A DNA stretch of 64,000 bases, taken from the NCBI RefSeq assembly GCF_003334815.1, contig NZ_QOWO01000001.1; one strand, given 5' to 3'. The position numbers and the translations under genes were made by a program. The notes under the pieces are model-generated. The model did no database searches and was not told where the DNA came from. It saw nothing but the letters and a program-made list of their open reading frames with translations. Positions 14,331 to 18,789 of this stretch are shown in pieces (position 1 is the stretch's first letter; every line of letters starts with the position of its first letter). The stretch comes from Escherichia coli. Its GTDB lineage: Bacteria; Pseudomonadota; Gammaproteobacteria; Enterobacterales; Enterobacteriaceae.

Positions 14331-14723
14331 ATGAAAAAATTAGAAGATGTTGGTGTACTGGTAGCGCGCATTTTAATGCCGATTCTGTTTATTACCGCTG
14401 GCTGGGGAAAAATTACTGGCTACGCGGGTACCCAACAATATATGGAAGCAATGGGCGTCCCGGGTTTTATGCTGCCGCTGGTGATTCTGCTTGAGTTTGG
14501 TGGTGGTCTGGCAATCCTGTTCGGTTTCCTGACTCGCACCACAGCCCTGTTTACTGCGGGCTTTACGCTGCTGACGGCATTTTTATTTCACAGCAACTTT
14601 GCTGAAGGCGTCAACTCGCTGATGTTCATGAAAAACCTGACAATTTCTGGCGGATTCCTGCTGCTGGCAATTACCGGTCCGGGCGCGTATAGCATCGACC
14701 GCCTGCTGAATAAAAAGTGGTAA
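14331..14723 (+). CDS. yqjF: DoxX-family inner-membrane protein YqjF (130 aa)
   Basis: ATG at 14331 with a GGAGAG Shine-Dalgarno; hydrophobic DoxX-like sequence. Confidence 0.8.
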   Translation: MKKLEDVGVLVARILMPILFITAGWGKITGYAGTQQYMEAMGVPGFMLPLVILLEFGGGLAILFGFLTRTTALFTAGFTLLTAFLFHSNFAEGVNSLMFMKNLTISGGFLLLAITGPGAYSIDRLLNKKW

Positions 14724-14749
14724 GCACGCGCTATACTTAACGATAAAAA

Positions 14750-14773
14750 ACGAGGAGGAAGCTCCTCGTTTTT
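14750..14773 (+). terminator. Rho-independent terminator after yqjF
   Basis: Stem cgaggag / ctcctcg with a 4-nt loop followed by TTTTT. Confidence 0.6.
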
Positions 14774-14792
14774 GCTATTGGAGGAGAGAAAA

Positions 14793-15779
14793 ATGGGTCA
14801 ACTGATTGACGGCGTCTGGCATGACACCTGGTACGATACCAAATCTACCGGCGGTAAATTTCAACGTTCAGCTTCCGCATTTCGTAACTGGCTCACTGCC
14901 GATGGCGCTCCTGGCCCCACTGGCACAGGCGGTTTTATCGCAGAGAAAGATCGTTATCATCTCTATGTTTCACTCGCCTGCCCGTGGGCGCACCGCACGC
15001 TGATCATGCGCAAACTCAAAGGACTGGAACCGTTTATTTCCGTTTCCGTAGTGAACCCGCTGATGCTGGAAAACGGTTGGACCTTTGATGACAGTTTTCC
15101 GGGAGCAACCGGAGACACGCTCTATCAAAATGAATTTCTGTATCAGCTTTATCTCCACGCCGATCCACACTACAGCGGACGAGTTACTGTTCCCGTGCTG
15201 TGGGACAAAAAGAACCACACCATCGTCAGCAACGAATCAGCAGAAATCATCCGCATGTTCAATACCGCGTTTGATGCGCTGGGCGCGAAAGCGGGTGATT
15301 ACTACCCTCCAGCCCTGCAAACAAAAATTGACGAACTTAACGGCTGGATTTATGACACCGTTAACAACGGCGTGTATAAAGCTGGTTTTGCCACCAGCCA
15401 GGAAGCTTACGACGAGGCGGTGGCGAAAGTGTTTGAATCGCTGGCACGACTGGAGCAGATTTTAGGCCAGCATCGTTACCTGACCGGCAACCAGCTAACC
15501 GAAGCCGATATTCGCCTGTGGACTACGCTGGTGCGTTTTGATCCGGTGTATGTGACCCACTTCAAGTGTGATAAGCACCGCATCAGCGATTACCTGAATC
15601 TGTACGGTTTTCTGCGCGATATCTACCAGATGCCGGGGATCGCCGAAACAGTCAATTTCGATCATATCCGTAATCATTACTTCCGCAGCCATAAGACCAT
15701 CAACCCTACGGGGATTATTTCAATTGGTCCGTGGCAGGATCTCGATGAACCGCATGGACGAGATGTTCGCTTCGGTTAA
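14793..15779 (+). CDS. yqjG: Glutathionyl-hydroquinone reductase YqjG (Xi-class GST, 328 aa)
   Basis: ATG at 14793 with a GAGGAG Shine-Dalgarno; contains the CPWA motif (SLACPWAHR) typical of Xi-class GSTs. Confidence 0.9.
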   Translation: MGQLIDGVWHDTWYDTKSTGGKFQRSASAFRNWLTADGAPGPTGTGGFIAEKDRYHLYVSLACPWAHRTLIMRKLKGLEPFISVSVVNPLMLENGWTFDDSFPGATGDTLYQNEFLYQLYLHADPHYSGRVTVPVLWDKKNHTIVSNESAEIIRMFNTAFDALGAKAGDYYPPALQTKIDELNGWIYDTVNNGVYKAGFATSQEAYDEAVAKVFESLARLEQILGQHRYLTGNQLTEADIRLWTTLVRFDPVYVTHFKCDKHRISDYLNLYGFLRDIYQMPGIAETVNFDHIRNHYFRSHKTINPTGIISIGPWQDLDEPHGRDVRFG

Positions 15780-15829
15780 AAAAAGGCACCTTACGAGGTG
15801 CCTCTGATAATTAGCTAAGTGCATGTTGT

Positions 15830-15935
15830 TCATGTCGGATGTGGCATGAACGCCTTATCTGACATACAAAACATTGTACATTCAATAGATTGCATAACCC
15901 GCGCAGACCAGATAAGCGTAGCGCATCTGGCGATT
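15830..15935. repeat. REP-like palindromic elements
   Basis: cgccttatctgac and gaccagataagcg inverted motifs in the intergenic region after yqjG. Confidence 0.5.
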
Positions 15936-16072
15936 TTGCGCTTGTCATCAGTCTTAGCGCGCCTTCACGGCACTTTATTAATTCCTTGAACGAATATTTA
16001 CTGCCATTTCATTCACGTCTATTCTTAATTTGCTGCTTTAAAAACAAGTGATTGAGCAAAATTGAGGCAAAA

Positions 16073-16438: not shown

Positions 16439-16679
16439 AACAAATCTGCTCGCCGGATGTCTGACTCATCCGGCTTTTATCATTATGTTGATGAATGAAT
16501 AATTTACTAATGTTTATTTAAAATATTTCAATGTCGTTATATAAATTACCTATAAAAAATAACCATGTATTTATCTTAAATATCAAAACCTTTATAACAT
16601 CCGAAAAAGAAAGATACGAATAGCATTTACACAATACCCGGAATAGACTTTCGTCACTTTTAATTAAAGGGATGTTTTT

Positions 16680-17036
16680 ATGCAGTGGTATTTGTCCGTA
16701 TTAAAAAATTATGTTGGTTTCTCTGGTCGCGCACGTCGTAAAGAGTACTGGATGTTTACTCTGATTAACGCCATCGTCGGCGCTATTATCAATGTCATTC
16801 AATTGATTTTAGGTCTGGAGCTTCCATATCTGTCTATGCTTTATTTGCTGGCAACCTTCCTTCCCGTCCTTGCGCTTGCTATCCGTCGCTTACACGATAC
16901 CGACCGTTCAGGTGCCTGGGCCTTGCTCTTTTTTGTTCCGTTTATTGGCTGGCTCGTGCTTCTGGTTTTTTTCTGCACAGAAGGTACTTCTGGCAGCAAT
17001 CGTTACGGAAACGATCCGAAGTTTGGTTCAAATTAA
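16680..17036 (+). CDS. yhaI: DUF805 inner-membrane protein YhaI (118 aa)
   Basis: Paralog of yhaH with the same conserved motifs; preceded by an AT-rich region. Confidence 0.8.
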   Translation: MQWYLSVLKNYVGFSGRARRKEYWMFTLINAIVGAIINVIQLILGLELPYLSMLYLLATFLPVLALAIRRLHDTDRSGAWALLFFVPFIGWLVLLVFFCTEGTSGSNRYGNDPKFGSN

Positions 17037-17046
17037 TCTTAGAATT

Positions 17047-17069
17047 GGGGCGATATTTCGCCCCTTTTT
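17047..17069 (+). terminator. Rho-independent terminator after yhaI
   Basis: Stem ggggcga / tcgcccc followed by TTTTT. Confidence 0.65.
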
Positions 17070-17086
17070 ATTAACAATAATAAATA

Positions 17087-17983
17087 TTATTTTCCGTTAA
17101 AAAGTTTGGGAATTTCCCGCAGACACCAGGATTTCGCTTCCCCCATACTGTCACGACGCCAGGCCATAATAATATCGATCTCGCTGGTCGATTCCGGGCT
17201 GACGACACGCAACCGCCCTTCCGCAATATCTTTTTCGACCATAGGATACGGCATCGTCGCCACGCCAAGCCCCGCCAGTAATGCCTGACGTTTATCTTCA
17301 ATCGTGCTCACCGTTAAGCGCGGCTGTTTGTCCAGCAGCTGTACGGTCAACACCGGGCGCTCACGAGCGGTATCCGCCACCGCAATTCCACGATATTTCA
17401 CACGCGTCACTTCAGATAACGGTTCCGGCTCCTGATGAATCGGGTGATCAGGCGCGGCAACGTAGACGTTCATTAACGTATAGAGCTTGCGCGAGTTGAT
17501 CTCCGACGAGGAACGAAAATGCATATCCGGCGCGATAACAATATCCGCCCGCCCCTGCTCCAGCCCTTCCCACGCCCCCGCCAGCACTTCTGTGATGATT
17601 GCCAGTTGGGTATTGGCTTTTGCCGCCAGTTTGTCGATTAACGGGAAAAAGGCAGGTGTCGGTACCAGCGCTTCGGTCACAATGGTGAGATGCGTTTCCC
17701 AACCGCGCGCGAGAGCTTCCGCATCAGTAGTCAGTTTATCTGCGGCTTCCAGCAAAACGCGCCCTCGCTCCAACAACATCCTCCCGACATTGGTGAATTT
17801 GGTACGATGGCCCGAGCGGTCAAACAGCACCACATCCAGCTCTTCTTCCAGTTTTTGCATGGTGTAGCTAAGTGCGGAAGGCACGCGTCCCAGCTCATCC
17901 GCCGCCGCCGCAAAACTGCCCCGGCGATCGATCGCATCCATAACCCGTAGTGCTTCCAGCGTTAATGCCCTTTCTTTGGCCAT
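17087..17983 (-). CDS. yhaJ: LysR-family transcriptional regulator YhaJ (298 aa)
   Basis: N-terminal helix-turn-helix (LEALRVMDAIDRRGSFAAAADELGRVPSALSYTMQKLEEEL); divergent from yhaK. Confidence 0.85.
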   Translation of the reverse strand: MAKERALTLEALRVMDAIDRRGSFAAAADELGRVPSALSYTMQKLEEELDVVLFDRSGHRTKFTNVGRMLLERGRVLLEAADKLTTDAEALARGWETHLTIVTEALVPTPAFFPLIDKLAAKANTQLAIITEVLAGAWEGLEQGRADIVIAPDMHFRSSSEINSRKLYTLMNVYVAAPDHPIHQEPEPLSEVTRVKYRGIAVADTARERPVLTVQLLDKQPRLTVSTIEDKRQALLAGLGVATMPYPMVEKDIAEGRLRVVSPESTSEIDIIMAWRRDSMGEAKSWCLREIPKLFNGK

Positions 17984-18087
17984 TTCGTTCTCATTCAGGA
18001 AATTTGAACATACCGGGCAGAATATCTGGCTAACAATGTAGCGTCCAGCCCCTTACCATAAAAGGAAGTAAAGAGAGGTCAAGAATT

Positions 18088-18789
18088 ATGATTACTACCC
18101 GAACTGCCAGGCAGTGTGGACAAGCAGACTACGGATGGTTGCAGGCCCGGTATACTTTTTCCTTTGGACACTACTTCGACCCGAAATTGTTAGGCTATGC
18201 CTCCCTGCGTGTGCTTAACCAGGAAGTGCTGGCCCCAGGTGCCGCCTTTCAGCCGCGAACCTATCCCAAAGTCGATATTTTAAATGTGATTCTGGATGGA
18301 GAAGCAGAGTATCGCGATAGCGAAGGCAATCATGTTCAGGCCAGCGCCGGAGAGGCGTTGCTGCTCTCTACCCAGCCGGGTGTCAGCTATAGCGAACACA
18401 ATCTCAGCAAAGACAAACCGTTAACGCGAATGCAGCTTTGGCTGGACGCCTGCCCGCAGCGAGAGAATCCGCTGATTCAAAAGCTGGCGCTTAATATGGG
18501 CAAGCAGCAATTAATCGCCTCGCCAGAGGGTGCGATGGGAAGCCTGCAATTACGCCAGCAAGTGTGGCTGCACCATATCGTGCTCGACAAAGGCGAAAGT
18601 GCGAATTTCCAGTTGCATGGGCCACGCGCGTATTTGCAATCGATTCACGGGAAATTTCATGCGCTTACGCATCATGAAGAGAAAGCGGCGCTGACCTGCG
18701 GTGATGGGGCGTTTATTCGTGACGAGGCTAACATTACGCTGGTTGCCGATTCCCCACTGCGCGCTTTGCTGATAGATTTGCCTGTCTAG
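18088..18789 (+). CDS. yhaK: Pirin-like bicupin protein YhaK (233 aa)
   Basis: ATG at 18088; cupin-like sequence; divergent partner of yhaJ. Confidence 0.85.
   Translation: MITTRTARQCGQADYGWLQARYTFSFGHYFDPKLLGYASLRVLNQEVLAPGAAFQPRTYPKVDILNVILDGEAEYRDSEGNHVQASAGEALLLSTQPGVSYSEHNLSKDKPLTRMQLWLDACPQRENPLIQKLALNMGKQQLIASPEGAMGSLQLRQQVWLHHIVLDKGESANFQLHGPRAYLQSIHGKFHALTHHEEKAALTCGDGAFIRDEANITLVADSPLRALLIDLPV

Follow-up and report, generated by a model that had tools for sequence, protein, structure and literature searches.

Within a 64,000-nucleotide stretch of Escherichia coli DNA (contig NZ_QOWO01000001.1; hereafter the window), positions 14331-18789 carry the genes yqjF, yqjG, yhaH, yhaI, yhaJ and yhaK, among which yhaJ encodes the LysR-type regulator YhaJ. 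On the basis of the present analysis, this stretch is very probably the local core of the known YhaJ regulon, whose intervening genes share its position but apparently not its control. It should be noted that the locus is the home of the E. coli YhaJ regulon itself and not of a relative, and that the regulatory part has already been published. What is new here is descriptive and consists mostly of negative additions: the conservation of the YhaJ boxes across the order, a common spacing between box and CTAACA, the lack of a box at yqjG, yhaH or yhaI, a conserved -10 element plus hairpin ahead of yqjG, and a variable content of DUF805 genes.

YhaJ boxes at yqjF and yhaK

A 6-kb query around the locus matched 5426 out of 5426 complete E. 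coli genomes, many of them at 100% identity. The stretch corresponds to positions 3,250,562-3,255,020 of K-12 MG1655 (window coordinates were converted to NC_000913.3 by adding 3236231), and the window was identical to K-12 across the stretches compared.

Regulation by YhaJ has been well characterized in previous studies. Deletion of yhaJ abolishes the induction of yqjF by 2,4-dinitrotoluene (DNT), trinitrotoluene (TNT), hydroquinone, 1,2,4-trihydroxybenzene and catechol (Palevsky et al. 2016, PMC5031710), and the induction of the yhaK, ybiJ, ygiD, yhhW and yceP (bssS) promoters by hydroquinone depends on YhaJ as well (PMC5031710). The six target promoters share a 16-base motif, TCA-N7-TGA inside T-N11-A; mutations in this motif abolish induction, and YhaJ shifts all six promoters in electrophoretic mobility shift assays (PMC5031710). 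The same study found accumulation of the yqjF inducer in a yhaK mutant, and its promoter-library screen yielded 17 hydroquinone-induced promoters (PMC5031710). The published inducers are hydroxylated benzenes, including 2,4,5-trihydroxytoluene from DNT, hydroquinone and methylhydroquinone, and the effector domain of YhaJ has been solved with methylhydroquinone bound (PMC10562874). According to the literature, YhaJ holds yqjF and yhaK down when no inducer is present, and effector-bound YhaJ activates both. In published chromatin immunoprecipitation sequencing (ChIP-seq), YhaJ peaks occur at yqjF and yhaJ/yhaK in all four E. coli strains, with yqjF among the three strongest peaks of each dataset; the K-12 peak centres at yhaJ/yhaK fall at window positions 17969-18020. 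Published RNA sequencing (RNA-seq) of ΔyhaJ mutants showed yqjF up 4.7-fold in enterohemorrhagic E. coli (EHEC) and yhaK up 2.3-fold in uropathogenic E. coli (UPEC). The yhaJ/yhaK region has been reported to hold a YhaJ site and overlapping promoters (PMC7315121), and further literature on the regulon is available (Connolly et al. 2019, PMC6765310; O'Boyle et al. 2020, PMC7315121). The statement of the initial annotation that yqjF and yhaK respond through YhaJ to hydroquinone-like compounds and to metabolites of DNT is well founded in these studies (PMC5031710, PMC10562874), and both boxes could be found in the sequence.

A weight matrix was built from the six published target sites taken from K-12. 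Its top two matches in the window were the yqjF box (22.8 bits) and the box in the yhaJ/yhaK spacer (19.1 bits), and these are the only strong boxes within the 64 kb. To avoid circularity, a second matrix was built only from the four targets outside the window (yhhW, ybiJ, ygiD and bssS). With this matrix, the yqjF box ranked first of about 128,000 positions at 20.9 bits, a score reached in none of 200 shuffles, and the yhaK box ranked fifth. Because a matrix made from unlinked targets places the two boxes this high, it is not by chance that two YhaJ targets share this locus with yhaJ. Several other candidates were rejected. The third-best match of the first matrix scores 14.4 bits and lies inside garD; the matches at 39178-39193 and 37734-37749, inside the garD and garP coding sequences, were dismissed as chance, and a second TCA-N7-TGA at 18079-18091 (9.7 bits) overlaps the yhaK start codon and was not treated as a site. 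A weak box-like sequence, TCAAATTCACTGTCCA, at 25772-25787 (8.7 bits) coincides with a published YhaJ ChIP peak named 'tdcE', the K-12 centre of which (about 3,262,012) corresponds to window position 25,781 or so.

The yqjF (14181-14245) and yhaK (17995-18059) promoter regions have a common geometry, box-N19-CTAACA-N18-(-10), in which the putative -10 elements are TATGAT and TACCAT, respectively. If CTAACA were the -35 element, the box centre would lie near -64 at both promoters, which suggests the classical position of the recognition site of LysR-type transcriptional regulators (LTTRs). By eye, CTAACA is not obviously shared by the yhhW and ybiJ promoters. Autoregulation of YhaJ would also fit, since the yhaJ/yhaK box lies within the yhaJ leader. 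The yqjF box begins three bases past the primary 3' end of yqjK, which Term-seq mapped to K-12 position 3250409, that is, window position 14178 (PMC7815308 supplement). An 'orphan' RNA 3' end listed in a supplementary table of that study (PMC7815308) falls at about 14325 on the plus strand (K-12 3,250,556), 6 nt before the yqjF start codon and inside the predicted yqjF leader.

Conservation across Enterobacterales

To examine other species, we used 80 YhaJ loci from different Enterobacteriaceae species and counted a box at 12 bits or more. Such a box was present upstream of yhaK in all 80 loci and upstream of yqjF in 74 out of 77, always in the same orientation, compared with 1 out of 77 upstream of yqjG and 0 out of 73 upstream of yhaH. 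Both boxes were also found in Yersinia pseudotuberculosis, Dickeya dianthicola and Sodalis praecaptivus, and the yhaK box alone in Pantoea ananatis. Thus, the two boxes are conserved across the order Enterobacterales. Within the window, the highest-scoring matches upstream of yqjG, yhaH and yhaI reached -3.7, 4.2 and 8.3 bits, the last in a very A+T-rich spacer; all of these are at or near background density, and no YhaJ box precedes any of the three genes. The sharing of boxes that the initial annotation had raised for the whole set is accordingly limited to yqjF and yhaK.

The gene order mzrA-yqjCDEK-yqjF-yqjG-[DUF805]-yhaJ<>yhaK is kept in nearly all 80 Enterobacteriaceae loci, but the linkage is uninformative within this family because the entire mzrA-yhaK neighbourhood is syntenic. 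In Yersinia, Dickeya and Sodalis, a pirin gene, the divergent yhaJ, a gene for a Xi-class glutathione S-transferase (GST) and a DoxX gene are directly contiguous (pirin<>yhaJ-XiGST-DoxX) and no DUF805 gene is present; the yhaK-side flank of the cluster varies by lineage. The linkage proposed earlier thus holds in these three genera for yqjF, yqjG, yhaJ and yhaK and not for the DUF805 genes. In Pantoea ananatis, the yhaJ<>yhaK pair has neither yqjF nor yqjG within 10 kb. YhaJ itself is at least 86% identical in the listed Erwinia, Pantoea, Pectobacterium, Dickeya, Brenneria, Sodalis and Yersinia proteins. Four more distant homologs (46-55% identity) were examined, the contexts of which were few and short for judging DoxX/Xi-GST linkage: one at 48% identity keeps only the divergent pirin gene nearby, and no pirin, DoxX or Xi-GST gene lies close to those at 50% and 55%.

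A few loci depart from the common order. Salmonella enterica subsp. arizonae has no yqjG, and an insertion of about 6 kb separates its yhaH from yqjF. In Franconibacter pulveris, about 6.6 kb lies between yhaJ and yhaH, and Lelliottia sp. V86_10 carries yhaJ-yhaK with no yqj genes within 10 kb. In Sodalis praecaptivus (locus L091, 12651-14083), the DoxX gene is separated from yqjK by two inserted genes, one for a TetR-family regulator and one for a DJ-1/PfpI-family protein; a role in the detoxification of electrophiles is often associated with the DJ-1/PfpI family.

The yqjF-yqjG spacer and control of yqjG

The spacer between yqjF and yqjG is 69 bp long (14724-14792) and holds two conserved elements. 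One is GCTATACTTAA, which we take to match the sigma-S-type extended -10 consensus; its core CTATACT was found in 64 out of 77 spacers and CTATAMT in 70 out of 77, and it is nearly invariant in the alignment. The other is a terminator-like hairpin with a minimum free energy (MFE) of -21.8 kcal/mol (z -2.55), which is conserved in 67 aligned spacers with compensatory changes in 4 stem pairs. Analogous arrangements of -10 element and hairpin are present in the corresponding spacer of Yersinia and Dickeya. The conservation of both elements before yqjG points to an independent promoter of the general-stress type rather than to control by YhaJ. A literature search on yqjG with RpoS returned nothing decisive.

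The putative -10 element lies upstream of the hairpin, and therefore the yqjG mRNA would begin with what appears to be the yqjF terminator. The hairpin might act as a leaky terminator, a 5' stabilizer or an attenuator; the Term-seq supplement has no entry for it, though the yqjK 3' end is listed there (PMC7815308). It is doubtful, but conceivable, that the conserved elements form a regulated leader that insulates yqjG from transcription of yqjF or conditionally couples it to the latter.

DUF805 genes

The content of DUF805 genes is variable. Among Enterobacteriaceae their copy number is 0, 1 or 2, and yhaI is missing in about one-fifth of complete E. coli genomes, some 1,080 in number, as 4,344 out of 5,426 carry at least 80% of the yhaH-yhaI segment. 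Given this variable copy number and the contiguous clusters free of DUF805 genes, the simplest reading is that these genes entered an ancestral four-gene cluster. The initial annotation had described yhaH/yhaI as an unrelated interruption, and the comparison with Yersinia, Dickeya and Sodalis agrees well with this description.

In genomes lacking yhaI, a single DUF805 gene abuts yhaJ, for example in strain Ecol_732. Most other genomes carry a yhaI allele that diverges from K-12 in a 200-bp patch (16793-16992, 72-75% identity) and changes 18 out of 118 residues, with flanks at 97-100% identity in most 100-bp windows. This pattern looks like a mosaic or gene-conversion tract.

Every gene from yqjF onward to the convergent yhaI/yhaJ pair is followed by a hairpin 3' of its own end, which was recognized by scan or folding for yqjF, yhaH and yhaI/yhaJ and by reading for yqjG.

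yhaL as a probable member of the set

The gene yhaL was missing from the gene set of the initial annotation. It starts 22 nt past yhaK, has a Shine-Dalgarno sequence and is separated from yhaK by no hairpin, REP-like (repetitive extragenic palindromic) elements occurring only after yhaL. Owing to the short gap, the Shine-Dalgarno sequence and the lack of an intervening terminator, yhaL is probably on the yhaK transcript, which would make it the best candidate for a further gene under YhaJ control. Neighbour mapping of the 80 loci showed that yhaL adjoins yhaK in Escherichia, Citrobacter, Salmonella, Klebsiella, Raoultella and Kosakonia, and did not detect it in Enterobacter, Lelliottia and Leclercia.

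Alternative explanations

The initial annotation had suggested that the whole stretch may form one quinone detoxification module. In that case, read-through from yqjF would raise yqjG, and a low-affinity site in the yqjG-yhaH spacer would raise yhaH and perhaps yhaI. The chemistry of YqjG fits such a module, as the enzyme, in line with the names of its PDB entries, reduces glutathionyl-hydroquinones. The yqjF and yqjG genes are also adjacent, with a short spacer, in Enterobacteriaceae, Yersinia, Dickeya and Sodalis. However, YhaJ boxes are lacking upstream of yqjG and yhaH, both in the E. coli strains compared and, with a single yqjG exception, across species; a stable and conserved terminator-like hairpin separates yqjF from yqjG, which is preceded by an independent -10-like element of its own. 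Moreover, yqjG, yhaH and yhaI are not named in the published lists of differential expression in ΔyhaJ mutants, nor are they among the 17 hydroquinone-induced library promoters, a comparison in which the library content for these three genes was unchecked (PMC5031710). Outside Enterobacteriaceae the cluster does without DUF805 genes, and within E. coli yhaI is accessory. With neither boxes nor entries in the ΔyhaJ lists for three of its proposed members, a single YhaJ-governed module appears quite improbable, and the suggestion of the initial annotation is not supported in this form by the evidence available.

Several points nevertheless weigh against the separation of yqjG, yhaH and yhaI from YhaJ. 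Between the end of the hairpin and the yqjG start codon there are only some 20 nt, too short a distance for a promoter, so every yqjG transcript must cross the hairpin; since all yqjG mRNA crosses it, it is no tight terminator, and some read-through into yqjG from an induced yqjF promoter is possible. The published ΔyhaJ transcriptomes were obtained from cultures to which no YhaJ inducer was added, and induced read-through from yqjF to yqjG is outside their scope. The adjacency of the two genes is conserved in three Enterobacterales families, a pattern compatible with a functional link and equally with simple synteny. For the yqjG -10 element, the assignment to sigma-S, like all transcription start sites considered here, is a prediction from the DNA sequence. 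Finally, a weak YhaJ ChIP peak named 'yhaH' is present in both replicates of the EHEC-LB and the NMEC-LB (neonatal meningitis-associated E. coli) datasets and absent from K-12. The ChIP coordinates were placed using the CE10 record, with an O157-like strain used alongside for EHEC. In CE10, the peak centres are located 58-127 bp past the yqjG stop codon, within the REP-containing yqjG-yhaH spacer, and thus some contact of YhaJ with this spacer is possible. No YhaJ box was found in the spacer in K-12, CE10 or the O157-like strain (best scores of 4.2 bits in the window, 4.5 in CE10 and 3.6 in the O157-like strain).

The opposite possibility is that only the divergent yhaJ-yhaK pair is meaningful in this clustering, and that yqjF is nearby only through the conserved core synteny of mzrA-yqjCDEK-yqjFG-yhaJK. 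This would agree with the gene order kept in nearly all Enterobacteriaceae loci, with the isolated yhaJ-yhaK pair of Pantoea ananatis, with the lack of some or all of the partners around distant YhaJ homologs, and with the fact that YhaJ also controls the unlinked ybiJ, yhhW, ygiD and bssS. On the other hand, yqjF is a primary YhaJ target, because its box is conserved across the order and it gives a top-three ChIP peak in every dataset. One of some 6-12 robust targets lies within 4 kb of the regulator in a 4.6-Mb genome, the chance of which is about 1% by a rough estimate. The four genes also form an unbroken cluster in Yersinia, Dickeya and Sodalis, where the yhaK-side flank differs by lineage. 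Mere synteny therefore seems highly unlikely as the whole explanation.

It was observed that the strains showing the 'yhaH' peak differ from K-12 in sequence exactly within the yqjG-yhaH peak region. In addition, the 'yhaH' row of UPEC-LB repeats the yhaK coordinates, apparently owing to a duplication in the table.

The preferred reading, a YhaJ core with separately controlled neighbours, may be summarized as follows. As published work shows, YhaJ binds the boxes at yqjF and yhaK and dampens both genes when no ligand is present, and a hydroxylated benzene on the effector domain turns YhaJ into an activator of yqjF and yhaK; yhaL would ride the yhaK transcript. The yqjG gene would be a separate unit with its own conserved sigma-S-like -10 element in the 69-bp spacer. 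Its product, which would convert glutathionyl-hydroquinones to hydroquinones, fits quinone detoxification chemically and may be expressed as general-stress housekeeping, not under YhaJ. With their own terminators, yhaH and yhaI would be unrelated passengers that entered the contiguous yqjF-yqjG-yhaJ-yhaK cluster in the Enterobacteriaceae lineage.

Protein families and other features of the locus

The features of the locus are listed in Table 1. The six genes of the initial annotation were confirmed at their coordinates and orientations, as the open reading frame (ORF) list, the RefSeq annotation of a 100%-identical chromosome and the K-12 MG1655 annotation agree, and Pfam and PDB matches bear out the family labels (DoxX, Xi-class, DUF805 pair, LysR and pirin-like). 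YqjF matches Pfam DoxX (PF07681, E 2.5e-21, residues 8-87). YhaH matches DUF805 (PF05656, E 5.1e-35) over the full model length, and YhaI, a DUF805 protein in the RefSeq annotation, is its paralog at 56% identity. YqjG residues 1-328 align at 780 bits with the crystallised YqjG (PDB 3R3E/4G0I) and at E 1e-95 to 1e-105 with other Xi-class GSTs and glutathionyl-hydroquinone reductases, and the translation carries the CPWA motif, as 'SLACPWAHR'. The YhaJ structures 9IRZ (DNA-binding domain) and 8H58 (effector domain) cover residues 1-94 and 95-298, respectively; PF00126 (HTH_1) and PF03466 (LysR substrate-binding) were found on a near-identical cluster representative. In the comparison with all NCBIfam LysR-family models, YhaJ matched below the equivalog cut-offs, and no closer named family was found. 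Beyond these sub-threshold LysR matches of YhaJ, the NCBIfam scan of the seven proteins gave only a weak HvfX match, for YqjF. An Rfam scan of 12000-21000 (E<=1) returned only sub-threshold matches to REP-like naRNA4 and isrD, leaving the spacers without a known RNA family.

YhaK matches the 'pirin-like protein YhaK' (PDB 2VEC) and, at E 1.5e-35, the quercetinase YhhW (1TQ5), and its orthologs carry PF02678 and PF17954. In the alignment of YhaK to its paralog YhhW, from which the YhhW residue numbers were counted, R57, Y59, Y101 and E103 of YhaK stand against H57, H59, H101 and E103. These four YhhW residues, as Adams and Jia are said to have described in 2005, are the metal ligands of a 3-His-1-Glu site in the N-terminal cupin. 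Three of the four canonical pirin metal ligands are thus replaced in YhaK, and the canonical 3-His-1-Glu site is absent. Because of this replacement, it would be unsafe to regard YhaK as a metal-dependent dioxygenase of the YhhW kind. Judged by its residues, YhaK has a pirin-like fold but is non-canonical as a metal pirin, and if YhaK does take part in breaking down hydroquinone, it would do so without the canonical metal centre of pirins.

Table 1. Genes and sequence elements of the YhaJ locus (window coordinates)
Feature	Position	Strand	Description	Evidence
yqjK (yqjCDEK operon) intrinsic terminator	14155-14178	+	hairpin, GGCCGG-N7-CCGGCC	read from sequence; Term-seq 3' end
YhaJ box of the yqjF promoter	14181-14196	+	TCAAATTTTTTGAAGA	exact match to published motif (PMC11739112)
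alternative yqjF promoter	14200-14229	+	TTGACA-18-CATCAT	consensus scan
candidate yqjF promoter	14216-14245	+	CTAACA-18-TATGAT	consensus scan, inference
yqjF	14331-14723	+	DoxX-family inner-membrane protein, established YhaJ target	ORF list, RefSeq, K-12 annotation, Pfam
putative yqjG promoter	14730-14740	+	sigma-S-type -10-like element, GCTATACTTAA	just past yqjF stop codon
terminator-like element	14745-14775	+	A-tract/hairpin/U-tract between yqjF and yqjG	terminator scan, folding
yqjG	14793-15779	+	Xi-class glutathionyl-hydroquinone reductase	ORF list, RefSeq, PDB match, CPWA motif
probable terminator after yqjG	15784-15803	+	hairpin with weak T-run	read from sequence; not called by strict scan
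REP-like palindromic elements	15835-15935	.	yqjG-yhaH spacer; approximate site of weak 'yhaH' ChIP peak	sequence
yhaH	16073-16438	+	DUF805 membrane protein	ORF list, RefSeq, Pfam
yhaH terminator	16452-16474			terminator scan
yhaI	16680-17036	+	DUF805 paralog of yhaH, accessory within E. coli	identity to YhaH, RefSeq
terminator	17047-17064		between convergent yhaI and yhaJ	terminator scan
yhaJ	17087-17983	-	LysR-type regulator sensing hydroxylated benzenes	ORF list, RefSeq, PDB matches
YhaJ box in the yhaJ/yhaK divergent spacer	17995-18010	+	TCAGGAAATTTGAACA	matrix search, cross-species conservation
candidate yhaK promoter	18030-18059	+	CTAACA-18-TACCAT	read by eye, inference
predicted yhaJ promoter	18082-18055	-	TTGACC-16-TATGGT; overlaps divergent yhaK promoter (region 18030-18082)	consensus scan
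yhaK	18088-18789	+	pirin-like bicupin, established YhaJ target	ORF list, RefSeq, PDB 2VEC
yhaL	18812-18976	+	54-aa protein, probably co-transcribed with yhaK	gap, Shine-Dalgarno, no hairpin between

Comparison with known systems

The closest known system is the E. coli K-12 YhaJ regulon, which is the very same locus, with the same yqjF box, divergent yhaJ/yhaK spacer, targets and inducers. A system responding to the same chemicals is the Bacillus subtilis MhqR regulon (mhqNOP, mhqED and azoR2), which confers resistance to methylhydroquinone and catechol and includes a DoxX-like membrane protein, MhqP, beside enzymes of the cupin/dioxygenase and reductase types. The YhaJ locus shares with it these chemicals and a DoxX-like member, but no sequence or synteny relationship between the two is known. 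MhqR is a repressor of the MarR type, whereas YhaJ is a LysR activator; Bacillus uses bacillithiol and is not known to have a glutathione-dependent Xi-GST. PcpF and other S-glutathionyl-(chloro)hydroquinone reductases sit inside dedicated clusters for the degradation of pentachlorophenol or lignin. In line with the names of PDB entries, they belong to the same Xi class as YqjG, share its CPWA active-site motif and catalyse the same reaction. Unlike in such clusters, yqjG shows no sign of pathway-specific control, as it is preceded by a sigma-S-like -10 element and no YhaJ box.

The arrangement also resembles classical LysR pairs such as BenM/CatM, CbnR, DntR and NahR, a family described in PMC5031710: yhaJ is divergent from a target, the effector is a small aromatic compound, a T-N11-A dyad box lies upstream of a weak putative -35 element, and a box lies in the leader of yhaJ itself. 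In contrast with these pairs, YhaJ controls many scattered single genes and not one catabolic operon, its targets encode a non-canonical pirin and a small membrane protein of the DoxX family in place of a ring-cleavage pathway, and YhaJ has no separate activation site assigned to it (PMC11739112).

Implications for the YhaJ regulon

If conditional coupling through the leader were true, yqjG would be a conditional and so far unnoticed output of the quinone response. Read-through coupling, if true, would link the sensing of free hydroquinones to the recycling of glutathione adducts, an incremental addition to the known regulon. Bacterial biosensors for landmines and DNT rely on the yqjF promoter and YhaJ as their sensing parts, a use that is already well exploited. 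The negative result narrows the set: local control by YhaJ is likely to extend not to yqjG, yhaH and yhaI, but to yqjF, yhaK and probably yhaL.

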